In this document: positions 31,447-63,197 of the stretch, in pieces
Numbering within the stretch: position 1 is the first letter of the stretch
Layout: each line of letters begins with the position of its first letter
Origin: Vicinamibacterales bacterium
GTDB taxonomy: Bacteria; Acidobacteriota; Vicinamibacteria; Vicinamibacterales; UBA8438
Assembly: GCA_965207675.1 (NCBI GenBank)
Contig: CBDBMY010000008.1
Span: 344,291-408,290, forward strand
Direction: 5' to 3'
Length of the DNA: 64,000 bases
The notes under the pieces: generated by a model
What the model was told of the DNA's origin: nothing
Databases searched by the model: none
What the model saw: the letters and a program-made list of their open reading frames with translations, nothing else
Made by a program: the position numbers and the translations under genes

Positions 31447-32200
31447 TCAGCCTACCGGCACACCCTTCTCGGGCCGCCGCACCGAGACGGTGCCGTCGTC
31501 GTTGTCCACGAGGATGTCGAACCTGCGCAGCGTGCGCAGCCAGCGGGGCGCGTTGCGCTTGACGAGGAGTGCTTCGTAGTCCGCAGCCGGGTCGCGGTAG
31601 GGCCTTCCGTCACGCAGGACCGCGAAGACGCAGCGAGCGAGCTTGTGCGCGTTGGCGACGACAGCGCGCTTGTAGCCGCGGCGCACGGTGAGCGCCTTCT
31701 GGTACGACTGGAACTGGCAGCCCTTGGTGCGCGCGGCGGCATGGGCGCACTCGACGAGCACGGCGCGTAGCGTGCGGCTGCCGGGGGGCGGCTGCGCCCT
31801 GTGCAACGCTTGCCGGCACTCTCGTTGTTGCCGGGGCACAGCCCGGCCCAGGAGGCGAGGCGGCCTTGCGACCGCGCAGCTGCTTCACGTGCTGCGCGTG
31901 CAGCAACTGCGCCTCGATGCCGGCCGCGACGAGGGCTCGCCATGGCGCCTGCCAGTAGACGCCGGTCCCCTCCAGGGCCGCCGCCTCGACACCGTGCCCG
32001 GTCAGCCGCTGCGCTTGCAGGGCTCCGCGCTGGCCGCGGCGGAGCCGGACCTCTCGTCCAGCGGCCCGGCTGTGTTGCAGGCGTTGCGGGGCCGCAAGAG
32101 CGAGAAGAGGGAAAGCCCGCGCACCAGGGCGACGACGCCGCTCCGGCCCGACCGGTTGGCGATGCGGTGCGTGCACGGGCTAGCGATCTCCTCGGGGAGC
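31447..32200 (-). pseudogene. IS110-family transposase remnant (frameshifts and deletions)
   Basis: The DEDD N-terminal part is ..EGTGVYWQAPWRALVAAGIEAQLLHAQHVKQLRGRK. ..RLASWAGLCPGNNESAGKR.. appears in another frame. The C-terminus is RRGYKRAVVANAHKLARCVFAVLRDGRPY. Confidence 0.65.
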
Positions 32201-32346
32201 CGCACCGGGCAGGTCGAACGGTTACGAAGCCACCAGATGCAGCGCCGCGGATCGTGTCTGGACTGCCAGCCGGACTGCCAGCCGTTTGTGACGGAATGAG
32301 ATGGTTTCTGACGGATTCTGACGTGTTCAGTCCGCAGAAATTCTCA

Positions 32347-45094: not shown

Positions 45095-45958
45095 ATGACC
45101 ACAACCACACCGGCACCGGCGCAGCCACGCGACCTCCACGGAACGTGCCGAGGGCGGCGGGTGCGCGACCCGCGAACTGTCGAACGTGAAGGGCACCCGA
45201 CAATGACGAGCGCCCGGATCGCCGTCAACCTCGCGGTGCCCGGCACCGCGCGCGAGGACCGCGACAAGCTGACCGAGTGGGTGAACGTCGCCGCATTCAC
45301 CAAACGCTCCCGCGACCGCCTGGAGCAAGCGTCCAAGGGCGACACGATCGCGGTGCTGGGGACAGTGTCCAAGCACTTCTACCAGCACCGCGACGGCGAA
45401 CGGCGGATCGAGCGGGCCATCTTCGCCGACGACGTGATGATCGCGGACACCGCGATCGCGTCAAAGGGTCCGGGCCAGTCCGGACCAGCCCCCGCCAACG
45501 CGTACCCCCGAGGACTCCACGGCACCTACCGGGGCCGCCTCGTGCGCGACCCCCGAACCATCGAGCGCGACGGAAAGCCGTCGATGACGACGGCGCGGAT
45601 CGCGGTCAACCTCTGCGCGCCGACAACACCCCGCGAGGAACGAGAGGATCTGACCGAGTGGGTCGACGTCATCGCGTTCTCCGAACGCGGACGCCACCTG
45701 CTTGAGCAGACCCGGAAGGGCGACCTCGTGGAAGTGACCGGCGGCGTGTCGAAGCAGTTCTACGCCGGCCGCGACGGCCGCCGCGGCGAAGACCGCACGA
45801 TGATCGCCGAAGACGTCGTGTCGGTGCGCGGCAGCCTGCAGGCCGGCGGGACGCACCCCGCCGACATCGACACGAACATCAAGGACGCCATCGGCACGAT
45901 GGTTCCCGACGACGAAACGAAGCCGACGCGCGTCGAGCCCGACACCGACCTCGACTGA
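45095..45958 (+). CDS. Tandem double-OB-fold SSB-like protein
   Basis: There are two collinear repeats. Repeat 1 is LHGTCRGRRVRDPRTVEREGHPTMTSARIAVNLAVPGTAREDRDKLTEWVNVAAFTKRSRDRLEQASKGDTIAVLGTVSKHFYQHRDGERR. Repeat 2 is LHGTYRGRLVRDPRTIERDGKPSMTTARIAVNLCAPTTPREEREDLTEWVDVIAFSERGRHLLEQTRKGDLVEVTGGVSKQFYAGRDGRR. The C-terminal tail is acidic. Confidence 0.75.
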   Translation: MTTTTPAPAQPRDLHGTCRGRRVRDPRTVEREGHPTMTSARIAVNLAVPGTAREDRDKLTEWVNVAAFTKRSRDRLEQASKGDTIAVLGTVSKHFYQHRDGERRIERAIFADDVMIADTAIASKGPGQSGPAPANAYPRGLHGTYRGRLVRDPRTIERDGKPSMTTARIAVNLCAPTTPREEREDLTEWVDVIAFSERGRHLLEQTRKGDLVEVTGGVSKQFYAGRDGRRGEDRTMIAEDVVSVRGSLQAGGTHPADIDTNIKDAIGTMVPDDETKPTRVEPDTDLD

Positions 45959-46086
45959 GCTCCGAATCTCGAAACGCGCGCAGGCGTCCCGACGATACCC
46001 GAGCGCACGCACCGAGACCAACGCGACGAGCAAGTGAGCGTCGAAGCCGCGCTCCCCGCGCGGTCTGCATCGAAGACGACGACCTG

Positions 46087-46488
46087 ATGACAACCACTGA
46101 CGAATCGACGAGGGCGGAGCACGCCACGCTGCTGTCCGCGGTCCACGAATCGGTCCGACACCACGGCCGCCTCGAACGCATCCAAGACCGGACCCACCAC
46201 TGCAGCGCCGTCATCTGCGCCATCGGCGGATCGGCGACCATCATGCTCATCGTGGCGGAGCTTCCGAACGACTGGGCGTGGCTTCCCTTCGCGACCGCGC
46301 TCCTCGCCGCCGCCGCGAGCTCGACGGCGCTCATCCTCGACCCGACACGCAAGGCCCGGACCCATGCGACACTCGCACGTCGCTACCTCGCACTCGAGTA
46401 CGACATCGCACGAACCGGATCGGACATCACCGCCCAAGAACTCGCCGTGTTCCGATCACGGCGAGTCCACATCCAGAATGACAACTGA
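46087..46488 (+). CDS. Small two-TM protein (SLATT-like layout, unverified)
   Basis: An N-terminal helix (LLSAVHESVRHHGRLERIQDRTHH) is followed by two adjacent TM helices (CSAVICAIGGSATIMLIVAEL, WAWLPFATALLAAAASSTALIL) and then a C-terminal helix (ATLARRYLALEYDIARTG). Confidence 0.5.
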   Translation: MTTTDESTRAEHATLLSAVHESVRHHGRLERIQDRTHHCSAVICAIGGSATIMLIVAELPNDWAWLPFATALLAAAASSTALILDPTRKARTHATLARRYLALEYDIARTGSDITAQELAVFRSRRVHIQNDN

Positions 46489-47069
46489 ACCGGGCCGCAG
46501 TTCCCAGCAACGAAACAAGACCTCCCCCCCATCCTGCCGGACGGTCACCCAGGACCGACGTCTCCCACTCACAGCCTGAAACGACTAGAACATGGCGACC
46601 GAGCACGGGTCCGAACACGACCCTGCAAGCCCGCGGCCACGACCGCTGCCCCGCGGCCGCGGACAGGGCGACCACACGAGCTGAAAGCCGCGCCGCCAGG
46701 TACAACCCAACGGGCCCAAGCGCCAGCCGACGATCCCGTCGACAGCGAACCAGAACGACGTGACCAGCGGCCCGCCGCTGATCACACCGATGGAGCCCTC
46801 TCCGCCAGACCCCTACGGGGTAAGTACGGACCGGGACGCTCACGCACCCCACCCCGCCCGAAGCCCGCGTCGCCGGGCCAGGAGCACGAGGACGCAAGCC
46901 AGAGCCGCTAGAGGTGTTCAGGGAAGAACCGCGAGGACGAAACCGCGAAGACAGCCGAGCAGGAACGACCGAGTACCAGCGAGCAGACACGACCAGCAAT
47001 CAATCCGGGCCGAGCTGGGAGGACACGGCGGTGACTGAGCCCAAGCCCCGAGGCCGACGACGCCAGCGA

Positions 47070-47473
47070 TCAGTCCGTGTCGACGTCGGACGTCGGTACG
47101 ACGGGATCGAGTGGGACCTCTATGGTGCGAATGACCAGGTCGCTGCCTTCGTAACGCGCGGGGAGGACGACGGGCTCCCCGGTCGCCCGCAGATCCTCGA
47201 TTAGCTGGACCGCTCTCTCGCGGTCGAAGGTCAGGGCCCGAGATCCGAACTCTGCGGGAAGAAGGTGATACGCCGCGCCCTGCCGACGGCCTTGGCCACG
47301 TCCTCGAGGCCGGCCGCGGTGTAATCCGCGGGCAGGAGCGGGTCGGGAACCTCCTCGAGGAGGTCGCTGTTGCGAGCCAGTATCCGGTCGCCCTCGGTCT
47401 GTCCGCGGGCAGCCACTGACGCCCGGCGCCCACGGACGGGTCCGGACGGACCGCCGCTCGCCGCAGTCACCAT
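47070..47473 (-). pseudogene. Hypothetical gene split by a frameshift
   Basis: ..ILARNSDLLEEVPDPLLPADYTAAGLEDVAKAVGRAR (ORF 47231..47473) continues in another frame as AYHLLPAEFGSRALTFDRERAVQLIEDLRATGEPVVLPARYEGSDLVIRTIEVPLDPVV (ORF 47070..47513). Confidence 0.35.
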
Positions 47474-47526
47474 GAGAACTCCCCAAGGGCGGGGCGGCCG
47501 AACCCCGCGTCAAGACGCGGCCTACT

Positions 47527-48756
47527 CTATCGACCGTCCAGAGAACGCTCGGAGGGATCGACGTACCGCCGCTGGCGCCAGTGTTTCTCGAGCAACTCGA
47601 GGCCCCGCACGACCGCCTCCCGGGCCAGCACGCCCCTCGACGCTCCCGTGGCGAGCTCGAGTTGGTCGAGCTCAGCCGACTGTTCCTCGCTGACGTTGAG
47701 CGAGATGCGGACGGGGAAGTTCCCCGCCCGCGACATCGCCCTAACAGGTCTGCTCAGTGCCATGATGTTTGTCTCCCGCCCCCCCCCGGCGACCGCAACA
47801 CCGCGAGCCCCGCTCACTAGCGGCTGGGGGCCGCAGGGGCCGGCGCGTCCCTCGACTGTCTCTTTCCTAAGTATACGCTGGTGACTCGGACGCTGGACGC
47901 CGGCCGGCCTCTCGTCCGAAGACGCGCCCCCGCCCGGCTTCGCGAAACCGGAAACGCGCGCGGCCGCCCGAGACCCCGCGCTTGAGCCCGGGCCCGCTGC
48001 CCGGCGCTGGTAGCCCTTCTTCAGCTCGGCCGCGGTCTCCTCGATGCTCGCCCTTCGGGCAGGATTCGCAAGCTCCTTCTTGTAGCGGTCGAGAACCTTC
48101 TGCAAGCCCGCGCGCTGCACGCCGCCGCGCCCAGACTTGTTCGCTGCCACGATGTCGACCGCCGCGAGCGAAGCCGCGATCTCCCCGTCGCGCTTGCGCT
48201 CGGCGGGCGTCGGGTTCCACGCCGCCGGCTTGCCGGCACGCGCCGAAGCCTTGCCCGCAGCCGCAGCCCCCTCACCGGCCGCCGGTTGAGCCGCCGACCG
48301 CGGCCCCGGCGGCTCAGCCGCCTTCGCAGCCCGCCCAAGCGCCTCGACGCCATCCTCGGGACCCGACTTCACCGGGACCGCCGGGTCCGCCGCCTTCACC
48401 CCCGGCACAGCCTCGGTCGGCTTCGCGTGCAACACCGGCGGACTGTAGGAGATCGGCTTGTACCAAGGGTTCCGAACCCGGGCGGCAGTGAGCCGTCCAT
48501 CCTCTACGAGCTTCGAGTTGTCGACGCCCGAACCGCGCCGATCGTACGCCTTCCTGACATCGGCGGCCCGCGACGAGAACTCCTCGAACCCGAGCGCCCG
48601 CGACGCCAGGTCATCTCGCAGCGAGAGGTGTCGCCGGTCCTTCTGCGACGGCGGACGCGAGCCGCTGCCCCGCTCGGCCTCCGCCTTCTGCACCGAGGCG
48701 CCGAGCTTCCGGAGATCCCGTGCCTCGCGCGGCTCGGGACCGCCCCCGACGCGCAC
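47527..48756 (-). CDS. Long ORF: Lys/Ala-rich hypothetical protein ending in a ribbon-helix-helix module (may be two genes)
   Basis: The C-terminal 78 aa from internal ATG 47763 (MALSRPVRAMSRAGNFPVRISLNVSEEQSAELDQLELATGASRGVLAREAVVRGLELL) form an RHH module. The upstream part looks coding (..NPWYKPISYSPPVLHAKP..LQKVLDRYKKELANPARRASIEETAAELKKGYQ). No stop separates the two parts. Confidence 0.45.
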   Translation of the reverse strand: MRVGGGPEPREARDLRKLGASVQKAEAERGSGSRPPSQKDRRHLSLRDDLASRALGFEEFSSRAADVRKAYDRRGSGVDNSKLVEDGRLTAARVRNPWYKPISYSPPVLHAKPTEAVPGVKAADPAVPVKSGPEDGVEALGRAAKAAEPPGPRSAAQPAAGEGAAAAGKASARAGKPAAWNPTPAERKRDGEIAASLAAVDIVAANKSGRGGVQRAGLQKVLDRYKKELANPARRASIEETAAELKKGYQRRAAGPGSSAGSRAAARVSGFAKPGGGASSDERPAGVQRPSHQRILRKETVEGRAGPCGPQPLVSGARGVAVAGGGRETNIMALSRPVRAMSRAGNFPVRISLNVSEEQSAELDQLELATGASRGVLAREAVVRGLELLEKHWRQRRYVDPSERSLDGR

Positions 48757-49578
48757 CGGCTCGTCGAACGCGCCCTTGCCGGGATGAGTGACAGAAGCCT
48801 CTCGACCGACCGGCCCCCGAGGACCGACGCCACCGTCAACGAGTCGACGCCGGCACTGACGGTGACCGCACGGCCCTTCGCCGTCGACGCCTGGCGGGCG
48901 AGCATGTCGCGGGCCACGTGCGGGCCCGAATGCATCGCCCGCTTGAAGTCCCGCGCGAAGCGTCGGACCTCCAACTTGCGGCGCTGAGGCGGATCGCCGT
49001 ACGCAACCACCTTGGCGCGACGGCCCGCGGCCGTATAGACACGCTGCCCACGGGCATGCGCCGAGCGCTGCGCCAAGTCGACCCCCTCATCCGGCAAGCC
49101 CTTCTCGTGGAGCCTCACAACCAGCCCCGGCTCCCCTGCCCGAAGTAGTCCTGCCGATGCATCCCCAGCCCCCGCGCTCACCCGCGCGAAGCTGTAGAGC
49201 ATGACCGAGAGTAGGCGCCCGGTGCCCGGCCAGCGCGCCCGTGTCGATCGACCCGAGGAGCTTCCTCGCCTCAGCTGGCGAGAGGACCGGCGGCGCGCCC
49301 TTGGTGACGACGTGCTTCGGCCCGCGCACCGCGGCGGCAGGGTTCGACGGGAGGATCTGGCTGACGACGAGCCAGCCGCCGAGCATGCGGATCGCGGCCA
49401 AGTGCTGCTTCACCGTCGGGGCCGACCTGGGATGGGTTCGGATATAGGTGGCCACGTGGAGCGGGGAGACGTCGCCCAGCCCGAGACCTCGCGCCTTACA
49501 CCACCCCGCCCCAACCGCCTGGGGCTCCGCGTCGACGATCACCTGCGGCAGGACGATCGGCAGCCTCATCGACACCAA
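48700..49578 (-). pseudogene. Tyrosine integrase, frameshifted
   Basis: The SAM-like N-terminal domain is ..SPLHVATYIRTHPRSAPTVKQHLAAIRMLGGWLVVSQILPSNPAAAVRGPKHVVTKGAPPVLSPAEARKLL. After a frame change it reads ..MLYSFARVSAGAG..LVVRLHEKG... The catalytic HxxR..Y part is not recoverable in one frame. Confidence 0.6.
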
Positions 49579-49589
49579 ACCGCAACATC

Positions 49590-50069
49590 GCCATCCACGC
49601 CGAGCTGACCATCGCCACCACCATCGACGACCACAGCGTCGCCCTCCACGCGGAGACCGGCGAGGTGTTGTGGGATCCCGAGATTCTCGACTACCGGGTG
49701 AACCTCGCCAACCAGACCTCGGGGCCGATCACGGCCGGCGGCAAGGCGTCTCGGGGCGGAGCTGCGACCCGGGGCGGGCCGCACAGCTGCGCCATCACCG
49801 CCCACGACGCCGCCACCGGCGAGGAGCTGTGGCGGCGCCGGCTCATCCCCGAGCCCGGCGAGCCCGGGAAACGAGACGTGGGGCGCGGTGCCGTTCGAAC
49901 GCGCCGAGCCCGCTAGGGTCTAGGGTGCGGTGTTTATGCGAACGCCGGTGGCACGTCGGTCACCTCACCCGCGCCGAAGTTCATGCTGGGGGGCGCCGAC
50001 CTCGCGCACCTCGACCACAACTCGACCCTCGCCCTCGACGCCGACACCGGCGAGATCGCCTGGTAGTAG
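49590..50069 (+). pseudogene. PQQ-dependent dehydrogenase fragment (frameshift and stops)
   Basis: ..LHAETGEVLWDPEILDY..NQTSGPITAGGK..CAITAHDAATGEELWRRRLIPEPGEPG is followed by a 1-nt shift to ETWGAVPFERR, and later by ..LDHNSTLALDADTGEIAW and then TAG TAG. These are beta-propeller W-motif repeats typical of quinoproteins. Confidence 0.5.
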
Positions 50070-50511
50070 CTGAAGATCGAGAATACCGCAACAGAAACGG
50101 GCCTTCTTGGGGCTTCGTGATCACCGATAAACCACCTTTAGGACCACGCGCTGATTCCCGTCCACAGCGGTCCATGACAGTTCTCTCGGGGGCTCTCGGG
50201 CTCTCGGGCTGGCGGGTGTGTCGGGGTTGGGCTGTCGGGGTGGGGGGCTGTCGGCTTCTCGGGGGTCTGTCGGGGTCCGGTGTCGGGGCGTCGGGTGTTG
50301 GGGGGTCGGGGGGCAACCCGTTCGGTCGGGCCGGTATGCCGCAACGCCGCAGCCCGGCCATCCTGGTCGGACAGCGACAGGAAGCAGTTCCTCTCGTCGA
50401 CCGCCTGCTGATCGAAACCTTCGTGGAGGCCGCACCGCCTCGGCCGTGCGATGCAGCCGGAGCTGCTGGACGAGACTTCGGGCCTTACCACCGCGCGACC
50501 CGAGCGGTTCT

Positions 50512-50536
50512 GTCGAAGGCGTTGCGGGGCCGCAAG
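50512..50536. repeat. Left arm of the inverted repeat flanking the HEPN islet
   Basis: GTCGAAGGCGTTGCGGGGCCGCAAG is found here, and its exact reverse complement is at 51840-51864. A third partial copy (AGGCGTTGCGGGGCCGCAAGAGCGAGAAG) lies at 32079-32107 inside the IS110 remnant. Confidence 0.85.
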
Positions 50537-50659
50537 GGCGAGATGCGGGCGACGCCGCGCACCACCGTGGACCGTGCTCGCCGACCCCAGCCATGGGTCT
50601 CAACTCCGTGTTGACTGTCAGCATCGTTGTCGTCCGCCTTTCGGCCGCGCCTCTCGTAA

Positions 50660-51499
50660 TCACAGCAAGTCCTTTTTCATCCAACCAGGCATTGGTTCCG
50701 AACATCCGATCCGTAGCGATCCGTCTTTCGCCCGCTCCGAACAGAAATGCCCGATACCAGTAATAATCTCACTAGTGACAGCAAGGCAATGGTCGATGAA
50801 TACCGAAGACATGTAATATATCCACGGTTCATTATTAGACGTTGAGTTTGAAAACCACTCAACCGGCCAGCCTGAAGCACACAGCCTCTTCTCGAAATCC
50901 CTACGCTCCTCAACCGGCCACTCAAATCCGAAATGGAACATTTTGTTCCGATATGCAACCAGCGCCGACAACGTGGGCTCAAATTCCGGTGGCAGGTTCC
51001 GCACTAGACCAGTTGCATCTGCAAGTTGCACCACACCACCAACGACATTTTTGCGCCACTTGTTTTTCTCGCCCGCCACCCAGCGGCAGTTCCACTTTTT
51101 CTCATCTGCGTTCGACACCCCTAGCCTGTGATGCTCAGACAGTGGCGGACAGTTCTCTGTCAAACGTCCAATTTCCCGAAAAGTGTGGTCAAATATGGAC
51201 TCGACGAGTGGTGCAATCATCCCTATGGCAGCCATGCTATGGGCTGCCGCCTGATAGCTGCTCTGATACAAGTGCTCGATCCACAAATCCGTCGCGTGTT
51301 CACTGCGCGCACGCCTCGCGAATCCCTCGGCCCTCTTGATCTTGGCGTCTATCTCTTCTTCCGCCCGTCGGTGACTGCTAAGAAGCTCGACGATCGCTAT
51401 CAACTGCGACTCATAGTCCAGGTGCGGCATCACGAAGACCGCAGCATCCCTCTGCTCATCGTCTATATTGAGCCAGCTTAACGATTCCATCTCTGTCAT
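50660..51499 (-). CDS. HEPN-like (RNxxxH) Abi-type orphan protein
   Basis: This 279-aa ORF lies in a markedly AT-richer islet. ..LSALVAYRNKMFHFGFEWP.. carries the R-N-x3-H HEPN signature in a helical context. The N-terminal half is helical. I recognise no other family. Confidence 0.65.
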   Translation of the reverse strand: MTEMESLSWLNIDDEQRDAAVFVMPHLDYESQLIAIVELLSSHRRAEEEIDAKIKRAEGFARRARSEHATDLWIEHLYQSSYQAAAHSMAAIGMIAPLVESIFDHTFREIGRLTENCPPLSEHHRLGVSNADEKKWNCRWVAGEKNKWRKNVVGGVVQLADATGLVRNLPPEFEPTLSALVAYRNKMFHFGFEWPVEERRDFEKRLCASGWPVEWFSNSTSNNEPWIYYMSSVFIDHCLAVTSEIITGIGHFCSERAKDGSLRIGCSEPMPGWMKKDLL

Positions 51500-51839
51500 C
51501 GCAACTGTCGTCCTCTCTGTCGCATTGACCTCTATCCATACGGTCTTATTCGCAAATATTCACAGCAACGAGCGTCCCCCGCCCCTCCCCTATAACGATG
51601 AGGAACTATATCCGATAGTGGCCAAGGAGTAGGGGGCGGGCCTGCCGACCCGCTCGGGTGGGCGTCACCCCAACCGCCGCGTAGGGCTTCCCGCAACTCG
51701 AACATCCGCGCGCAGCGGCCGGCGGATGGCGCTCCTCGATGCGTTCCTCGAGTCCGGGTCGCGGCGTGCGCCCCTGGCCGGGAGCGCCGCAACGCTGGCC
51801 GCGAGGGCGGCCGGTGCCCGCCCTCTCCCGCTTCTCGCT

Positions 51840-51864
51840 CTTGCGGCCCCGCAACGCCTTCGAC
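51840..51864. repeat. Right arm of the inverted repeat flanking the HEPN islet
   Basis: CTTGCGGCCCCGCAACGCCTTCGAC is the reverse complement of 50512-50536. Weaker similarity extends ~15 bp on both sides. Confidence 0.85.
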
Positions 51865-52010
51865 AGCTCCCGCAGCGGTCGAGCGGTCTGAGCTGACGAG
51901 CTGTCGGAGCTGTCAAAGCTGTCAGGCCGTCTCAAGCTGTCAAGCTGTCGATTCCTCCAACGGCCGGGTGTCAAGTCCGTCGAGCCGCCGCCCGCCAGAG
52001 CGCTTGGGAG

Positions 52011-52358: not shown

Positions 52359-55300
52359 TCAGGTCGCGGTTGCGGCGGACTTCCGGGGCGGTCTCTTCTG
52401 GATCTCGTCGAGGAGTTTCTCGAGCCGGTCGCGCTCGCCGTTCCGGAGTCGGCGGTTCTGCCTGGGAGGTCTCTCCGCGACCAGGGCCTTCAGCTTGAGC
52501 AGCCATTCGAGGTCGGCCCGGATCTCTCCTTCCGCGAGTTCGACCGCCCGCTCCCACGCGCCGGCGTTCCGGAGCACCCGCAGCACGTCCCTGGGCCTGT
52601 TGGCCCGTTCGTAGGCCTCGGCCGCCTCCCACGGGCGTTCCTGGGCCTCGCGGAGACGGCCGAGCCGTACGGGGTCGGGCCGGATCTTGTCCAGCAGGGA
52701 CTCGGCGTCTCTCAGTCGAGACCGCCGCTCGGCGGCGGGTTCGTCGTGGCCGCCGCTCGAGAGAACGGTGTCGAACGCCTTGGCGGTCAGGGCCTTGGCC
52801 CGCGCCTGAACGTCTCCGGCGTAGCCGGTGATCCGGAGCCACGTCTCGACGAGGCCGGGATCGGGTTTGGCGAACAGCAGCGCGGTGTCGGGGTCGGCGG
52901 TGCCAGCCGTCAGCCCGTCCCTGAGGGTCTGAGCGGCTGAGAGCAGCGCCGGCCGCAGCCAGCTCTCGCCGTCGGTCTGGAGCGTCCTCAGTCGCCGGAC
53001 CGCTTCGAGCAGTGCGAACGGCGGGATTTCGTCCCGGTTCGCGGTCCAGTAATCGAGTTCGTCGAGTGCCCGGGCGTGCTGCTTCTGGAACATGTGGGTG
53101 AGCGCCCGCGGCTGCGGCTGTTCCTCTCCAGGCGGTTCAGGTTCTTCTCCGGGCTCCAGTCCGCTCAGCGTCGGTTGGTTCGGGCGTTCGTGCTGGTTCT
53201 CGGCGGTTCGGCTTGGGGTGAGCGGCCCCGGTTCGAGCCCCGTAATGGCCTGGTAGCCCATCTGCGTGATCTGGTTCCGTGGGACGCCTTCCGGTACTCC
53301 GTCCACCATGAGGCGTGCCGCCGTCTCGAGCAGCGTGCGACGGGCGTCGTCTCGAACCGCCTGATCCGCCACCCCGTTCGGCAGTTCCCTGTCGCCGAGC
53401 AGGCGTACCGCCTGGCAGGCTCTCTGCCATGCCCGGTGCGGCGCGGCGTCAATCAGTCCCCGCGCATCGCTCGTCCGGGCGAGCACGCGCTCTTCGGGGG
53501 ACGCGTCGGCGTGCGACAGGTGGTCGAGCAGGTCGTCGGGGCTGTACGGCGCCGGGTCTCCGAGCAGAGCGCCGCTCAGGCGCAGGTCGGCCTCGCTTCC
53601 CATGACGTCGATGAATACCAGCGTCTCCGTCGCGCGGCTCAGCGTGACCCGCAGGTGGTCGATGGCCGTACGGGTGGCGGGCTGATCGAGCTCGGCGTCG
53701 CTCCCGTACGCCCGGTTCCCGGGCGAGAGACTCGAGAGCACCGGGCCCGGGTCGAGCACGCACACCGACTGGTACTCCAGGCCCTTGGCCTCCGCCGGCG
53801 TGAGCACCATCGGCCGGAGTTCCATGGGCACCCACGGGGGAGCGTCGTCCCTCGGGGAGAGGACCGCGACGTCGCCGGTGTCGTCGAGCCCCTCGAGGAG
53901 CCGTACCGCCTCGGCCGCTTCGGGCACATGGACGTGGATCAGCTGCGCGTCGACATGCTCGGCGCTCCTCTGTCGGTGCTGCCTGGTCGGGCGGGCCTCC
54001 TTGTCGACGACGGTGTAGTGTTCGGACGCCCGGTCCACCACCTCGGCGATGCGGCTCGGGCAACGGAGGTGTTCCTCAAGGCGGAACTCGGCCGGCCGCC
54101 GCACGCGCCTGCTCAGCAGGTCGTTCAACGGCGCCCATTCGAAGCTCGTGGGTCTCACCGTCTGTCCGGCATCGCCCGCCATCAACAGCCACGGAGAGTA
54201 ACCGCGGGCTCGTCCGATTGCCCGGCACAGTTCCACGACGACTGCGGTCTCGAGAAGTGTGAGGTCCTGGACCTCGTCGACCACGATGCGGTCGAAGCTC
54301 TCGAATCCCTCCGGGATCTGGTCCTGGCGCAGCTGATCGACGGCCTCGGTGGCGGCGGCGAGCTCCGGGAAGATGTCCGTCAGCCGGTCCCGGTCCCGCA
54401 AGAGTGGTTGGGTCACTCTCAGGAGGGCCTTGGCGGCCTTCTCGCCCACGCCCTCGTAATCGCCCCGCAGCTCGGCGTACGCGTCGTCGTGGAGGCGGGC
54501 GATGGCGCCGTTGCCTGCGTCTCGTGTGTTGCCGGGCGCGGCCCGGCCGAAGAAGAAGCCGCGCAACTCGGCGTGGAGCGCGTGCGGTCGTCTCGCCCAC
54601 GGGCCGGCGTCCCGGCCGAGTCTCGTCAGCGCGTCCCGGAACTTCTTCCGGCTCTCGCCGAGCGTCTGCCTCGGCACGTCAGCCCGGCGGAGCTCGCCTA
54701 GAAAAGTGGCGAAGTCCCGGGCAACGATGTCGACCCCGACGGGAGCGAAGGACCTGAACCGTTCCTCGGCGTGACGCGTGAGAGCGCTCGACCACGTGAG
54801 GTACAGCACCCGCTGGTCGATCCGGGCCTCGACCGCCTTCCAGAGGACCGTGGTTTTCCCGGACCCCGGGCGTCCGATGATCACGCGGACCGGAGTCTGG
54901 TCGTCGACGAAGTCGATCTGCTCCCTCGTCCAGGGGGAACCGGCGATGTCCTCGATCAATTCGTCCGATGTCGCCAGGTGCAGATAGTCGCCGAGGGGGC
55001 CGGTCGCGAGCGGGGAGTGGTCGTCGTGATGTCTCACGTCCCGGACGACAATGGCGTTCTCCGGCAGCTGGAGGCCCTGAGCGCGCGGGCTCGAGGCCGG
55101 CGTCCACCACAGGTAGTACTGCATGCCGTTGTTGCCGCCCAGCGGGGACCGGCGCCACCCCTTGTTCTCGTTCGCGCAGCCCTTGACGACGGTCGACCGG
55201 CCATGGGCGGCCAGGTGCTGGAGCACGATGCCCAGCCGCCTGTAGAGGTGGGTCCAGCCCATCAGTCGTTCCGAGATGTCCGGGTGCACGTGGAGCGGGT

Positions 55301-55694
55301 GGCGCATCTCGGGGTACTTCAGGTCGGCTCGGTTGGCGGGGGAGTCCTTCCGGAAGACCATCCGCCCGTCGTGGTTGGGCGGTTTGGCTCGGGGTTTCCG
55401 GTCGGACGCCGGCCGCGCCGGTCCGTCGGGCGTCATGCCGACGGCCTCTGTCGCCGCCCGCAATATCGTGCCGGTCAACTGCTCGCACTGCTCGATGGAG
55501 AGCATGAGCTTCCGGTCCCGCGCCCTCTTGCGGTCGATCTTCAGTACGCCTTCGGCCAGCTTGGAGACTTCGCCTATGTCGAGGTTCAGGATGCGCGCCA
55601 GCTGCTGGAGCGTCTTCGGCGTGCGGATGTCGATCCTTGGAATCCTGTCGTTCCTCATGTCGGGTCGAGTTCTCTCCGTGATGCCGGCTTCCAC
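52359..55694 (-). CDS. Large SF1 (UvrD/Rep-like) helicase with extra N-terminal domains and a ~400-aa helical C-terminal extension
   Basis: Walker A is IIGRPGSGKTT and Walker B/motif II is IVVDEVQDLT. Further motifs are LLMAGDAGQTV, EEHLRCPSRI, KGLEYQSVCVLD and VTLSRATETLVFID. The N-terminus has an HTH-like segment (TLQQLARILNLDIGEVSKLAEG) and GWRRSPLGGNNGMQYYLWW..AIVVRDVRHHDD. Confidence 0.85.
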   Translation of the reverse strand: MEAGITERTRPDMRNDRIPRIDIRTPKTLQQLARILNLDIGEVSKLAEGVLKIDRKRARDRKLMLSIEQCEQLTGTILRAATEAVGMTPDGPARPASDRKPRAKPPNHDGRMVFRKDSPANRADLKYPEMRHPLHVHPDISERLMGWTHLYRRLGIVLQHLAAHGRSTVVKGCANENKGWRRSPLGGNNGMQYYLWWTPASSPRAQGLQLPENAIVVRDVRHHDDHSPLATGPLGDYLHLATSDELIEDIAGSPWTREQIDFVDDQTPVRVIIGRPGSGKTTVLWKAVEARIDQRVLYLTWSSALTRHAEERFRSFAPVGVDIVARDFATFLGELRRADVPRQTLGESRKKFRDALTRLGRDAGPWARRPHALHAELRGFFFGRAAPGNTRDAGNGAIARLHDDAYAELRGDYEGVGEKAAKALLRVTQPLLRDRDRLTDIFPELAAATEAVDQLRQDQIPEGFESFDRIVVDEVQDLTLLETAVVVELCRAIGRARGYSPWLLMAGDAGQTVRPTSFEWAPLNDLLSRRVRRPAEFRLEEHLRCPSRIAEVVDRASEHYTVVDKEARPTRQHRQRSAEHVDAQLIHVHVPEAAEAVRLLEGLDDTGDVAVLSPRDDAPPWVPMELRPMVLTPAEAKGLEYQSVCVLDPGPVLSSLSPGNRAYGSDAELDQPATRTAIDHLRVTLSRATETLVFIDVMGSEADLRLSGALLGDPAPYSPDDLLDHLSHADASPEERVLARTSDARGLIDAAPHRAWQRACQAVRLLGDRELPNGVADQAVRDDARRTLLETAARLMVDGVPEGVPRNQITQMGYQAITGLEPGPLTPSRTAENQHERPNQPTLSGLEPGEEPEPPGEEQPQPRALTHMFQKQHARALDELDYWTANRDEIPPFALLEAVRRLRTLQTDGESWLRPALLSAAQTLRDGLTAGTADPDTALLFAKPDPGLVETWLRITGYAGDVQARAKALTAKAFDTVLSSGGHDEPAAERRSRLRDAESLLDKIRPDPVRLGRLREAQERPWEAAEAYERANRPRDVLRVLRNAGAWERAVELAEGEIRADLEWLLKLKALVAERPPRQNRRLRNGERDRLEKLLDEIQKRPPRKSAATAT

Positions 55695-58130: not shown

Positions 58131-59342
58131 ATGACCGATCCGTCACGCGTTCACGTTTCCGGCGCTCTCCAGCCGTTCGCCATCGGCTTCGCGTCCGAGC
58201 TCGCACGTCAGGGCTACCGGTCGGGCTCTCAGGCTCAGCAGTTGCGTCTGATGGCGCATGTGAGCCGCTGGCTTGGCTCGAACGACCTGGATGTCGCCGA
58301 TTTCCCCCGCCATGCGGAGCGGTTCCTCCAGGTCCGACGGGCTGCTGGCTACAGGTGCCTATGGACAAGCCGCGCGTTGCGTCCGTTGCTGATGCACCTG
58401 CAACGTCGCGGCGCGACGCCTCCAGGGCCGCCGCGGATCCCTTCCGGACCTGTGGACGAGGGCCTGGCACGGTACTCGCGGTACCTCATCGTCGAACGCG
58501 GCCTGAGCGGGCGCACCGTCGATGGTTACGTCCATGCGGTCCGTCCCTTTCTGCACCGCTGCATCTCCGCCGACGGCTTGGCGCTCGACATCGACCAGCT
58601 CACCGAAGCTGACGTGACCGCGTTCATGGTTGCCCGCTGCCGGGAGCAATCTCGCGGCGCCGCGCAACTGACCGCGACCGCCTTGCGCTCGCTGCTGCGG
58701 TTTCTCCATGTCACCGGGGCGACTACGGATTCACTGGCCGGGGCTGTCCCGTCGGTGGACAGCCGACGACTGGCAGGGTTGCCGTCACGTCTCGAGCCCG
58801 AGCACGTCCGACGACTGTTGGCCGCGTGCGATCGCCGCACGCTCGGCGGCAGCCGTGACTTCGCGGTCATCACCACGCTGGCCCGTCTCGGCCTGCGCGC
58901 AGCCGAAGTGGCGACCCTGCGCCTCGACGACGTGCACTGGCGAGTCGGTGAGCTCGTCGTGCACGGCAAGGGACGCCGGGCTGAGCGCGTGCCCCTTCCA
59001 TCCGACGTGGGCGCCGCGCTCGTTGCCTACCTCCATCGGCGCCCGGCCACTGCACAGGGCCGCACGCTCTTCGTACGTCTCGCCGCACCACATGTGCCGT
59101 TCAGTCCCACCGCGGTAGCGCATATCGTCGCCGGCACCGCCCAGCGGGCGGGACTCGATCACGTCAGCGCCCACCAATTGCGCCATTTCGCAGCGACGCA
59201 GTTGCTTCGCGCGGGCGCCCCGCTGTCCGAGATCCAAGACTTTCTGCGCCACGCCCGCATGCAGACCACCGCGATCTACGCGAAGGTCGACCGCGACGCC
59301 CTGCGCGCCATCGCCCGTCCGTGGCCGGGAGGTGTCGCATGA
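58131..59342 (+). CDS. Tyrosine recombinase, RIT subunit A-like
   Basis: Motifs are ARLGLRAAEVATLRLDDVHWRVGELVVHGKGRRAERVPLP, AHQLRHFAATQLL and MQTTAIYAKV. GGAGAGGAGG RBS is present. Confidence 0.9.
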   Translation: MTDPSRVHVSGALQPFAIGFASELARQGYRSGSQAQQLRLMAHVSRWLGSNDLDVADFPRHAERFLQVRRAAGYRCLWTSRALRPLLMHLQRRGATPPGPPRIPSGPVDEGLARYSRYLIVERGLSGRTVDGYVHAVRPFLHRCISADGLALDIDQLTEADVTAFMVARCREQSRGAAQLTATALRSLLRFLHVTGATTDSLAGAVPSVDSRRLAGLPSRLEPEHVRRLLAACDRRTLGGSRDFAVITTLARLGLRAAEVATLRLDDVHWRVGELVVHGKGRRAERVPLPSDVGAALVAYLHRRPATAQGRTLFVRLAAPHVPFSPTAVAHIVAGTAQRAGLDHVSAHQLRHFAATQLLRAGAPLSEIQDFLRHARMQTTAIYAKVDRDALRAIARPWPGGVA

Positions 59343-60265
59343 CCGCCCTGCGCCGCGCCCTGACCGACTACCTGGCAATGCGCCGGGCGATGGGCTCTCG
59401 CCTGGTGCGGGCGGAGAAGCTCCTCGCGCAGTTCCTGACCCATCTCGAAGAGCGGGGGCAGACCCGCCTGCGCATCGCGAACGCCGTCGCCTGGGCGACG
59501 GAACCGACCGGCGCGGACCCGAGCTGGTGGGGGCACCGCCTGGGCGTAGTCCGCGGCTTCGCGACCTATCTGCACACGATCGACCCGGCGACACAGATCC
59601 CGCCTCCGGATCTGCTGCCGACGCGATCCTTGCGCGCCACGCCCTACCCCTACACGGACGACGAGGTGGCGGCCGTGCTCGCCGCTGCCGCAGGCTTGCG
59701 CACGGCGCATCGGGTGGCGACGTATCGGACCCTGATCGGGCTGCTCGTCGTGACCGGGATGCGGGTCGGCGAAGCCATCGCGTTGGACCAGCAGGACTTC
59801 GACGCCGGGCAAGGCCTAGTCACCGTCCGCCGTGGCAAGTTCGGCAAATCCCGCGAGCTCCCCTTGCACCCGAACGCCACCGCCGCGGTCAGGCGATACC
59901 TCCAGCGCGGCGATCGGCCGACGACCCAGCAGCACACTGCCGCGCTGTTCGTATCCACCGCGGGCACCCGGCTGCTGTACTGCAATGTCCAGCGCACCTT
60001 CCGCTCGCTGGTGCGGCGGGCCGGCCTCGCGCCGCGCTCCGCGTCCTGTCGACCACGGCTGCACGACATCCGACATCGCTTCGCAGTATGCACCTTGCTC
60101 GACGCCTATCGGCAGGGCCACGATGCGGAAGCGCGGCTCGCGCTGCTCGCGACCTATCTCGGCCATGTCGACCCCAAGCACACCTACTGGTATCTGTCCG
60201 CGGCGCCGGAGCTGATGCAACTGGCCGCTGACCGCCTCGAACGTCATCAGGGAGGCAAGCGATGA
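59339..60265 (+). CDS. Tyrosine recombinase, RIT subunit B-like
   Basis: An ATGA overlap links it to the previous gene. Motifs are VTGMRVGEAIALDQQDFDAGQGLVTVRRGKFGKSRELPL, LHDIRHRFAVCTLL and LGHVDPKHTYWYL. Confidence 0.9.
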   Translation: MTALRRALTDYLAMRRAMGSRLVRAEKLLAQFLTHLEERGQTRLRIANAVAWATEPTGADPSWWGHRLGVVRGFATYLHTIDPATQIPPPDLLPTRSLRATPYPYTDDEVAAVLAAAAGLRTAHRVATYRTLIGLLVVTGMRVGEAIALDQQDFDAGQGLVTVRRGKFGKSRELPLHPNATAAVRRYLQRGDRPTTQQHTAALFVSTAGTRLLYCNVQRTFRSLVRRAGLAPRSASCRPRLHDIRHRFAVCTLLDAYRQGHDAEARLALLATYLGHVDPKHTYWYLSAAPELMQLAADRLERHQGGKR

Positions 60266-61251
60266 GCGCCCTCGCTCCCATCCTCGAGGCGTTCTTCACG
60301 GACCGACTGGTCCAGCAACGCCACGCCAGTCCCCACACCATCGCCGCCTACCGCGACGCGTGGCGGCTGCTGCTCCGCTTCGCCGCGGCCAACCTCACCA
60401 CAGCCCCCTCGAAGCTGAAGCTCTGCGATCTCGATGCGCCCCTCATCGGGCGGTTCCTGGAACACCTCGAGGGCGGCCGCGCAAACACCGTGCGTACTCG
60501 CAACGCGCGGCTATCGGCCATTCATGCCCTGTTCCGCTACGCCGCGTTGGAGCATCCCGATCACGCCGCCGTCATTGCTCGCGTCCTCGCGATTCCGCCG
60601 AAGCGCGGCCCGCGGGGGCTGGTGACTTTCCTGTCCGACGTGGAAATCGACGCCCTGCTCGCCGCCCCCGACCGCACCACGTGGACCGGCCGCCGCGACC
60701 ACACCCTCCTCGCGCTCGCGATCCAGACCGGGCTCCGCGCTTCCGAGCTCACCGGTCTGCGGCGTGCGGACCTTGACCTCGCGGGCGGTGCGCACGTCAA
60801 CTGCCTGGGGAAAGGCCGCAAGCAGCGAATCACGCCGCTCACCAGGGCGATGGTCGTCGCCCTGCGGACGTGGCTGGTCGAGCGTGCCGGCACACCGGAC
60901 GCACCGGTCTTTCCAACGCGGACCGGCCGCCCGCTCAGTCGAGACGCGCTGGCACAACGGCTCGCGACACACGTCGCCACCGCCACGGCCGCCTGTCCCT
61001 CCCTCCGAGAGAAGAACATCACCCCGCACACGCTACGCCACACCGCCGCCATGCGACTGCTGCACGCCGGGGTCGACACCACCGTCATCGCGCTCTGGCT
61101 CGGACACGAACACGTCGACACGACCAACATCTACATCCATGCCGACCTCGCCTTGAAGGAACGCGCACTGGCGAGGACCTCCCCCGCCGGCGTCCGGGCC
61201 GGCCGCTATCGCCCCCCGGACAGGCTCCTGGCCTTCCTGGAGGGTCTGTGA
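60262..61251 (+). CDS. Tyrosine recombinase, RIT subunit C-like
   Basis: An ATGA overlap links it to the previous gene. Motifs are QTGLRASELTGLRRADLDLAGGAHVNCLGKGRKQRITPL, PHTLRHTAAMRLLHAG and LGHEHVDTTNIYIHAD. Confidence 0.9.
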   Translation: MSALAPILEAFFTDRLVQQRHASPHTIAAYRDAWRLLLRFAAANLTTAPSKLKLCDLDAPLIGRFLEHLEGGRANTVRTRNARLSAIHALFRYAALEHPDHAAVIARVLAIPPKRGPRGLVTFLSDVEIDALLAAPDRTTWTGRRDHTLLALAIQTGLRASELTGLRRADLDLAGGAHVNCLGKGRKQRITPLTRAMVVALRTWLVERAGTPDAPVFPTRTGRPLSRDALAQRLATHVATATAACPSLREKNITPHTLRHTAAMRLLHAGVDTTVIALWLGHEHVDTTNIYIHADLALKERALARTSPAGVRAGRYRPPDRLLAFLEGL

Positions 61252-61334: not shown

Positions 61335-62613
61335 GCTTTCGGCAAAGCCACTGGCGCAGCCGCCGCGTGGCGTGCTCGTCAATCGACGCGTAGGCCGGGC
61401 TGACCTGCCCCAGGGTGAAGTTAGTTCGCCCAGCCCGTCATCACACGGTTCAGGCGCGCCACCACAACCCCAGGCGGTAGCAGCAGGTCACGCGCCGTCG
61501 TCAGCTCGCTCAAACGACGGCAGATACTCCGGACGCTGTCCCGGCTCGGACGCGTGCCGATGTAGGCGGCACCCGTAGCCGGCCGGTAGTTGCGCCCAAT
61601 CCGGTAGCCGAGGAACGTCATCGGCTCCTCCGGCACCCGGCAGCATCGGGTCTTCTCGGCGTTCATCGGCAGCTTCAGACGCCGCATCAGGCTCTCGACC
61701 GGCGTCAGCATCTCTGCCGCCGGCGCTCGGCCGAGTACTGCGAAGTCGTCCGCGTAGTTGACGAACTCCGCCTCGAAGCGCCGGGCGTAGCCCAGCACCT
61801 TCCAGCCCAGGATGAAGCGACGCATGTAGATGTTGCTGAACAGCGGCGAAATCGGCGCCCCTGCGGGGTCCCCTTCCGCTCGCGACGCGCCCGGTTCGTA
61901 CGGCGGCGGCCGCCACGCCCGTCGTCCTCCTCCACCGCCATCTCCAGCCACGCCTTGACCCAGCCCAGCAGCCGCCCGTCGCTCACGCGGCGGGCGATGG
62001 ACCGGAGCAGGTCGGCGTGCGGGATTTGACCGAAGTAGTCCGACAAGTCGCCGTCTACCACCTCCCGGTGGCCCGTCGTCAGCAGCCGGTGCACGCGCCT
62101 GACCGCGTCATGCGCGTCCCGGCCCGGCCGGTAGGCGTATTGCTCCGGTTGCAGGTCGGCCTCGAAGATCGGCGACAACACCAGCATCGCCGCCGTCTGC
62201 GCCACCCGATCCCGGAGACACGGAATGCCCAACGGCCGGAACTTCCCGCGCTGCTTCTTCGGGATGAGGACCTGCCGAACCGCGCTCGGCCGGTAGGTCC
62301 CCGCCTTCAGGTCCCGCGCCAGCGCCCCCAGCCACCGGTCTACCCCGACCGACTCGATGTCCGCGACGGTCTCGCCATCCACCCCGGCCGCGCCGCCGTT
62401 GCGGCGGACGGCCTGCCAGGCGACCGCGAGCACGTCGTCGCGCCACACCTTGTCGCTCAACGAGTAGAACCGGAAGCCCGGAGCTCCCTTCGCTTTCGCA
62501 TGTGGCGCCGTCTGGAGTCGCTGAACCCGTTCTGAGGCGGTTAGGCTCTCGCCAGTCCCCACGTCCCTTCCTCCGTCATGCGCTGCTCTCGAACTGAGGC
62601 CCCTTCCCTCCAC
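61335..62613 (-). pseudogene. Group II intron reverse transcriptase/maturase with a 1-nt frameshift and a C-terminus interrupted by RIT2
   Basis: ..FRFYSLSDKVWRDDVLAVAWQAVRRNGGAAGVDGETV..RQVLIPKKQRGKFRPLGIPCLRDRVAQ..GDLSDYFGQIPH..KGTPQG is followed by a shift in a G-run near 61868 to APISPLFSNIYM..VNYADDFAVLG..LNRVMTGWANYF.. Confidence 0.85.
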
Positions 62614-63197
62614 CGGCGTTACCCGGCTTCCCCGGTACTACGGGCCTCTCCGCCACCCTGCTCGGCCCGACCTGACCCTCGCGGGCTGTCGGTTGGCGCG
62701 TGCCACGCCACCGCCAGGGCTTCCCGTGTTGCGTCCGTCCCCCTTTTCCGCACGTGCCGCCGCCATTACCCCGGCGGAACCGGTCGGTGCTCGCGTCGCT
62801 CGCTTCCCGACCGCTGGCAGCCTTCCCCGTCATATGGTCGGGTCGGCTTCCGCATCACTCGTTTCGAGGCCTGCTCAGCGTTCACTCGCGTTGCAGCCCG
62901 TGTGGTCGCTGAACCGCCCAAGGCGGCCCTTTGTCGTCGGAGTGCTTCAGCCGAGTCGTTGCCTCCATCGTCCGCTCCGACTGCTACCGGCTGGAGCGAC
63001 AGTTGCCGGGCGGGATTCGCACCCGCTGAGGAATGGCGCCTTTCACGGCGCACCATACGCCGCGTTATCCGACCCACCGCCACCCGCTGACGCCGCCTCA
63101 TCGATTGACTGCGGCCGGACACTCGTGTCCCGGGGGGGACGGTCGCGTAGAATTGGCCGATGCTGACCCCTGCGACCGAGGATGAACGGGAGCGCAC
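61335..63197 (-). mobile_element. Group II intron, 5' portion (ribozyme domains I-III and most of the IEP ORF)
   Basis: The minus strand starts GTGCGCTCCCGTTCATCC.. at 63197, the GUGCG 5' consensus. About 585 nt of structured, non-coding sequence lie upstream of a reverse transcriptase ORF. I did not identify the 3' end. Confidence 0.75.

Follow-up and report, generated by a model that had tools for sequence, protein, structure and literature searches.

A predicted HEPN-like RNase gene of the Yma-like family lies in a low-GC cassette among IS66-type repeat debris

A 64,000-nucleotide stretch of contig CBDBMY010000008.1 (assembly GCA_965207675.1, forward-strand positions 344,291 to 408,290; hereafter the window) contains an intact, ATG-initiated open reading frame (ORF) of 279 amino acids at 50660–51499 on the minus strand, which belongs to a Yma-like protein family and is predicted to encode a HEPN-like RNase. 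The gene lies between the two halves of a perfect 25-bp inverted repeat, and an earlier note on this DNA, made from the letters alone, had presented it as a HEPN gene captured between inverted insertion sequence (IS) fragments. We find that headline to be half wrong. The HEPN label is reasonable but unconfirmed, and the bracket is ordinary debris of IS66 elements and of a miniature inverted-repeat transposable element (MITE). The account that we favour, at somewhat better than an even chance for its two halves taken jointly, is that two unrelated things coincide here, a HEPN-like defence gene and overlapping IS66-element debris.

A conserved motif in a widespread, unmodelled family

The R-N-x3-H motif picked out by the earlier note is present in the ORF as YRNKMFH at residues 183–189 (50933–50953, minus strand; R184-N185-x3-H189 at 50933–50950). 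A word-indexed search returned 258 homologues at E ≤ 1e-3 and an exhaustive search 593 clusters at 50% identity. Family members are nearly all single-domain, unnamed proteins of 240–300 amino acids, spread over Acidobacteriota, Pseudomonadota (including Ti plasmids), Longimicrobium (Gemmatimonadota) and other groups. The proposed conservation of R and H among homologues was confirmed, with R184 present in 239 of 239 members and H189 in 237; residue 185 is N in 235, H in three and D in one, and E100 (238 of 239) and W194 (239 of 239) are also conserved. One member is the Agrobacterium octopine Ti-plasmid protein ‘Yma’ (O52290_AGRTU, WP_010892461.1; 36% identity over 90% of the query, E = 3e-38), which is also found among defence-type genes but differs in being plasmid-borne in Alphaproteobacteria; it is likewise uncharacterised, and a literature search on ‘Yma’ found nothing on its function. 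Pfam, NCBIfam and PADLOC v2 hold no model for the family.

An AlphaFold (AF2) model built from a 31-sequence alignment (predicted local distance difference test, 90; predicted template modelling score, 0.86) has helices at residues 29–64, 67–113, 173–190, 196–208 and 232–259, an irregular insert at 114–172 and a β-hairpin at 216–230. In this model helix 173–190, the third core helix, carries the motif at its C-terminal end, with a GFEWP loop directly after it. Mean-field direct-coupling analysis of 239 sequences supports a bundle of helices 1, 2, 3 and 5: the pairs I36–L98, I54–S80 and Y29–T106 favour a hairpin of helices 1 and 2, M89–F188 places helix 2 against the motif, and T176–H237 and A90–L239 pack helix 5 on helices 3 and 2.

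The HEPN domain is described as a four-helix bundle formed from two α-hairpins, with a conserved Rx4–6H motif in which N, D or H directly follows the R; helix-2 carries a conserved acidic residue near this motif (PMC3710099). The family has the Rx4–6H spacing with a polar residue after the R, and in the model both the place of the motif, where the third bundle helix ends, and that of the insert agree with the published anatomy. E100 lies in helix 67–113; the M89–F188 coupling sets the H87-S88-M89 patch, not E100, opposite the motif. As far as sequence and modelled secondary structure can show them, the family has the features of HEPN domains.

Compared with known HEPN RNases (HepT/DUF86, the Abi_2 proteins AbiD/AbiF, and PrrC/RloC), the family shares an all-helical build, an invariant R-N-x3-H that ends the third core helix, an insert between helices 2 and 3, residence in defence islands, often appended to restriction–modification (R-M)-type operons, and low-GC, horizontally mobile genes. 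It differs in being longer (~270 amino acids), in an N-terminal helical hairpin of 45 residues per arm, and in the β-hairpin and helix that separate the motif helix from the final helix of the bundle; it has no MNT or antitoxin partner and, unlike PrrC/RloC, no ATPase domain. We propose that the product would be a stand-alone, all-helical, metal-independent endoribonuclease of the HEPN type, in which R184, N185 and H189 would face the conserved H87-S88-M89/G93 patch of helix 2 to create the active site, probably across a dimer.

Searches for HEPN homology

Several results weigh against this assignment. Pfam, NCBIfam and PADLOC gave no match to the ORF, and Pfam gave no significant HEPN match to 31 family members and nothing HEPN-related with consensus sequences of the family and its sub-domains. 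Neither the full nor the C-terminal alignment found a match in PDB profile searches, Foldseek comparison of the full model and of its 67–262 core with the PDB gave no match, although Foldseek is weak on helical bundles, and comparison with BFVD gave none either. In hhalign, an alignment of 30 HepT/DUF86 sequences, a genuine R-N-x3-H family, scored a probability below 1%, as did a PF05168 neighbour protein. Two of the 31 members matched HEPN_Cthe2314 at E = 0.044, which we took as noise; the match in member P0037 covers residues 197–241, after the motif. Other findings count on the same side. A promoter and terminator scan detected neither a sigma-70-like promoter nor a terminator, and tblastn against a phage collection and a scan of IMG/VR found no relatives, on which grounds a phage origin was rejected. 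The window copy differs from that of a near-identical metagenome scaffold, L001, by eight nonsynonymous and three synonymous codons; it retains all conserved positions except for D137N, and the L001 copy carries E198G and P225L. The codon differences fit, and hint at, relaxed constraint in this lineage. Finally, the function of the protein is entirely inferred.

The earlier HEPN call thus stands for the conserved R and H but not for homology, as no HEPN family model or solved HEPN structure was matched, and no sequence-profile or Foldseek similarity to the tested HEPN families was detectable. Because HEPN families are notoriously divergent and Foldseek performs poorly on helical bundles, we put true membership at roughly an even chance or slightly better. 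The failure of all profile, profile–profile and fold comparisons with HEPN families speaks for a rival account, which we consider rather unlikely, that the protein is helical but unrelated to HEPN RNases, be it some other kind of enzyme, a sensor or a regulator, and carries R-N-x3-H as a convergent or structural motif; it could still be related to defence. This account has to contend with the invariance of the motif and the restriction of the position after the R to N, H or D, with the modelled match of both the third-bundle-helix end and the insert to published HEPN anatomy, and with the fact that HEPN families are often detectable only through the motif (PMC3710099).

Genomic context of the homologues

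The predicted HEPN-like effectors occur in defence neighbourhoods, on the same strand as varied systems and tightly spaced behind them, and often close R-M, McrBC or helicase–nuclease operons. Homologues follow Eco57I-like methylase/helicase operons and stand beside DISARM-like DEAD/MZB and SIR2 genes (L003 and L056), lie 12 bp after McrC (L057), overlap HsdS with a PhdYeFM gene and then pAgo downstream (L051), or overlap a NOV_C nuclease gene behind an SNF2 helicase (L062). Others lie between RES and Dcm/PRTase-CE genes (L059), between an NYN/helicase gene and a NERD-UvrD gene (L049), and, on a Ti plasmid, among PIN, TIR and ABC-3C genes (L060). A tight association with R-M systems is known for HEPN proteins in general (PMC3710099). 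The homologous genes have a G+C content (GC) of 0.49–0.62 (0.49–0.56 in eight of nine loci), which is below that of their flanks in all nine loci checked, by 0.02–0.16. In one further locus, L061, a low-GC ORF of 266 amino acids, cut by the contig end, lies upstream of the homologue (1–801); by eye its product looks like a PD-(D/E)xK restriction-endonuclease-like protein.

No neighbour is common to different homologue loci among those examined, and the neighbours show no cross-similarity, which bears out the remark in the earlier note that an antitoxin-like partner is not evident. These observations also bear on the idea that the gene is the toxin of a toxin–antitoxin (TA) pair whose antitoxin was missed, as a small ORF or an antisense or repeat RNA, or was lost to IS-mediated deletions. 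We regard this as highly improbable. Many HEPN proteins are indeed TA toxins (PMC3710099), a PhdYeFM-type gene follows one homologue (L051), and an 8-bp tandem array lies upstream of the ORF at 51874–51951. That array, however, is outside the cassette and beyond the IS66 arm, no neighbour is conserved across the examined loci, and Rfam, run in gathering and E-value modes, gave nothing relevant, with only one chance-level match at E ≤ 1.

We return to a partner-less effector. A single-gene abortive-infection or back-up role would have the protein cut RNA once a phage evades or disables the first-line system, and the family spreads horizontally as a small low-GC cassette into defence islands, typically behind R-M-like operons. 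PrrC/RloC-type anticodon nucleases are linked to type I R-M, and an arrangement of this kind may be compared with that of PrrC and EcoprrI, from which the present family differs in having no ATPase module. We offer, tentatively and at less than an even chance, the reading that the Yma-like family is an undescribed, highly divergent HEPN branch, a partner-less, single-gene suicide or back-up effector that has repeatedly docked as the terminal gene of unrelated first-line systems; with the same reserve, these systems would include type I R-M, McrBC, Eco57I-like, helicase–nuclease and pAgo neighbourhoods.

The low-GC cassette

GC is 0.523 in the ORF and 0.529 in the islet at 50600–51640, as against 0.683 for the whole window, and a sliding profile dips to 0.48–0.57 across ~50600–51650, so the contrast in composition claimed for this gene is real. 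The low-GC cassette (~0.53) occupies 50564–51667 on the minus strand and comprises the ORF together with ~95 bp on its 3′ side and ~170 bp on its 5′ side. Its 3′ edge (~50564) recurs in the independent homologue locus L061, where the product is 77% identical and nucleotide similarity extends from 21 bp upstream of the start codon to window position 50564. This is exactly where the MITE fragment ends in the window, and L061 contains no IS66 sequence; because L061 shares the edge without IS66 sequence, the cassette has its own 3′ boundary. At the 5′ edge the window is shorter than L001 by a 290-bp deletion.

Within the 5′ untranslated region (51560–51640, minus strand), G+C-rich inverted segments, CCCGCCCCCT and AGGGGAGGGGCGGG, surround an AT-rich stretch and are conserved in L001. 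They could be an operator or a hairpin.

Origin of the inverted repeat

The perfect 25-mer GTCGAAGGCGTTGCGGGGCCGCAAG is present at 50512–50536 (plus) and 51840–51864 (minus), and none of 100 shuffles produced such a match by chance. The earlier note had described the repeat correctly as perfect but understated its length, for it extends over 54 nt at 89% identity (50510–50563 and 51813–51866), beyond which both arms continue as recognisable IS66/MITE sequence. At ~89% identity over ~76 nt we estimate ~0.36 perfect 25-nt runs, and therefore the perfection of the 25-mer needs no special explanation.

The left arm (50314–50565, plus) is part of a 389-bp IS66-derived MITE: positions 5–246 of its consensus align to 50318–50564 at 84% identity. 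It has a degenerate left terminal repeat at 50314–50328, holds the 25-mer and is truncated where the cassette starts. The right arm (51666–51888, minus) also holds the 25-mer and is a fragment of an IS66-family transposase gene, in which the 25-mer encodes S-K-A-L-R-G-R-K. Its segment 51666–51866 corresponds to codons 280–346 of an intact transposase at locus L032 (88% amino acid identity, E = 3e-35); IS66/MITE-like sequence then continues for 22 bp to 51888 without an IS terminus, and the outer part of the arm (51813–51888) aligns to MITE consensus 171–245. The L032 transposase is a 743-amino-acid ORF with a DDE_Tnp_IS66 domain (PF03050, E = 3.5e-53) in an intact IS66 element that lies 8 bp from a MITE, and because the right arm matches it we conclude that the repeat arms are IS66-derived. 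The flanks are thus IS-derived as had been proposed, but the family is IS66 rather than IS110. The two arms face inward, and each breaks off on the side towards the gene. These alignments show that the 25-bp repeat is the overlap of a truncated MITE left end with an internal transposase-gene fragment, the remains of two IS66-family elements that were truncated independently.

Scaffold L001, 98.6% identical to window 48714–51867, keeps more sequence beside the right arm, which when read in frame resembles the N-terminal part of an IS66-family transposase. Its frameshift-corrected translation matches transpos_IS66 in NCBIfam (NF033517, E = 7e-7). Pfam gave no match to raw-frame translations of the arms and none to the frameshift-corrected L001 concatenate, and a search of plasmids with the L001 arm in ‘distant’ mode gave no match.

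A scan for the 19-mer core of the repeat, with one genome per species, found 45 loci. Roughly two thirds of these fall in unrelated genes that encode ‘ALRGRK’ by chance, and ~15 are one repeated element present in several copies per chromosome in metagenome-assembled genomes of Vicinamibacterales (Acidobacteriota). Aligned full copies measure 388–390 bp, start with GTAACCGTTCGGTCGTGCCGG and finish with CCGGCACGACCGAACGGTTAC; their terminal repeats are GTAACCGTTCGG and CCGAACGGTTAC, with starts of the form GTAA(C/G)CG, and they bear target duplications identical in eight of eight positions, ACCCGTGG in L032 and CCGGCACG in L039 and L042. IS66 insertions generate 8-bp repeats (PMC11946415). By its sequence, the 389-bp element is an IS66-type MITE dispersed in many copies, which resembles IS66 in its parent DDE_Tnp_IS66 transposase, GTAA(C/G)CG terminal repeats and 8-bp duplications and is internally deleted; unlike intact IS66 elements and MITEs, the window holds only fragments (MITE 5–246, MITE 187–389 and transposase codons 280–346). 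A literature search on IS66 MITEs found nothing bearing on function.

The third copy of the repeat, which had been placed inside an IS110 remnant, does exist as a related sequence at 32074–32098 with two mismatches, but it lies beside the remnant. It belongs to the right-hand part of another MITE copy (32042–32225, plus), in which MITE consensus 187–318 aligns to 32067–32198 at 90% and the right terminal repeat occupies 32211–32225. A frameshifted IS110-family transposase remnant (31447–32010, minus; its outer limit near 32010 is approximate) abuts this copy. IS110 sequence as the source of the repeat was rejected, since the third copy aligns to MITE 187–318 and finishes in an IS66-type terminus, and derivation from an IS110 bridge-RNA region was dropped after the MITE ends and the Vicinamibacterales copies had emerged. 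Before the third copy, at 32042–32072, lies an inverted 31-bp piece of the MITE (positions 132–162). This makes a second inverted junction near the palindromic core TTGCGGGGCCGCAA and hints that rearrangements are concentrated there.

Tandem arrays of ~8-bp units adjoin both arms, arrays of the GTCGGGGG type directly outside the MITE left end (50183–50313) and one of nine AGCTGTCG units directly outside the right arm (51874–51951). Similar arrays often abut MITE/IS66 ends elsewhere (L009/L029/L046, L039/L042, L033 and L014), with examples such as three copies of GTCCACGG, CCGGCACG arrays on both sides and four copies of GGTAGCCC. Period-8 self-match in such arrays is 0.5–0.72, whereas the background averages 0.28 with its 99th percentile at 0.50. 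They look like amplified target-site duplications and could arise from repeated insertion and excision at one site or from a preference for such arrays. IS66 and MITE copies also stand end to end, 8–9 bp apart, in L032 (1958–2360), L004, L010 and L031, and in L032 the 8-mer ACCCGTGG occurs before the MITE and again between it and the next IS66, which suggests that insertion is targeted beside existing copies.

Capture or mobilisation by the arms

Capture of the gene between two inverted IS fragments, with present or past mobilisation in the manner of a composite transposon, now appears very unlikely. Both flanks are of the IS66 family in inverted orientation with their 5′ parts outward, the insert is compositionally foreign and the same arrangement is found in a second metagenome (L001/L002), all of which favour capture. 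Yet L001, at 98.6% identity, is the orthologous locus, collinear to 48714, rather than a new insertion site, and no second site of the arm–gene–arm unit was found. The right arm is an internal gene fragment without a terminal repeat: no IS66 terminus was found beyond 51888, and IS66-like termini occur in the window at 50314 and 32211 only. Each arm has lost its inner part, the unit is not bordered by a target duplication, MITE and IS66 sequences are absent from all 15 other homologue loci and L061 has the cassette 3′ boundary without IS66. Composite transposons of the Tn5/Tn10 type likewise carry a passenger gene between inverted IS-derived sequences, but here the arms are non-equivalent (a MITE end and an internal gene piece) and the outer IS terminus on one side, the target duplication and the second site are all missing. 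Because the right arm has no IS end and a flanking target duplication is missing, the unit as it now stands is not a transposon.

By the earlier note’s own terms, capture was to be given up if the repeat proved to be a common dispersed sequence unrelated to the gene. The scan across genomes revealed just such a multi-copy MITE/IS66 element (~15 of the 45 loci), absent from the 15 homologue loci, so that capture fails on those terms. L001 and the window cease abruptly to match at the repeat core’s outer edge (51867), and the 290 bp of L001 absent from the window are missing at 51666/7; both observations suggest recent recombination and deletion among the dispersed IS66/MITE copies. The arms are remnants of a repeat family that, in this lineage (probably Vicinamibacterales), is abundant and prone to recombination, and in their present state they neither define nor mobilise the gene. 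The case also serves as a caution, since a perfect inverted repeat around a foreign gene may be a mere overlap of dispersed IS and MITE fragments.

Other features of the window

The upstream neighbour on the strand of the ORF is a UvrD/AAA_19-type helicase of 1,111 amino acids (52359–55694, minus) with weak similarity to GajB (E ~5e-4); a functional tie to the ORF is not shown. This helicase and the NERD-UvrD helicase downstream of the homologue in L049 share no detectable similarity. The window at large is a graveyard of mobile elements that includes an IS3-type integrase, three consecutive tyrosine recombinases, a group II intron, a single-stranded DNA-binding protein (SSB) gene and an integrase fragment. 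The recombinases (58131–61251; 403, 314 and 329 amino acids, all Phage_integrase) are of the ‘recombinase in trio’ type, and the intron (61705–63028) combines an Rfam RF02003 match (62886–63028, minus; 84.6 bits) with a reverse-transcriptase ORF (61705–62613, minus). About 3.5 kb of the window (45250–48713), containing the C-terminal part of the SSB gene and ORFs of 133 and 409 amino acids, is absent from L001, and the near-identical window and L001 elements therefore differ by indels. The 409-amino-acid ORF has a weak, sub-threshold match to RHH_1 (E = 0.036).

Implications

The most economical reading is of a defence effector that needs no partner, moves about as a small cassette and, in this window, is stranded among IS debris. 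The interest that remains lies in a protein family for which there is as yet no model. If its members are HEPN RNases, the family adds a widespread, so far unmodelled candidate for single-gene defence, and its recurrence behind diverse restriction-type operons would, if true, support the view that suicide RNases are interchangeable back-ups to DNA-targeting immunity.

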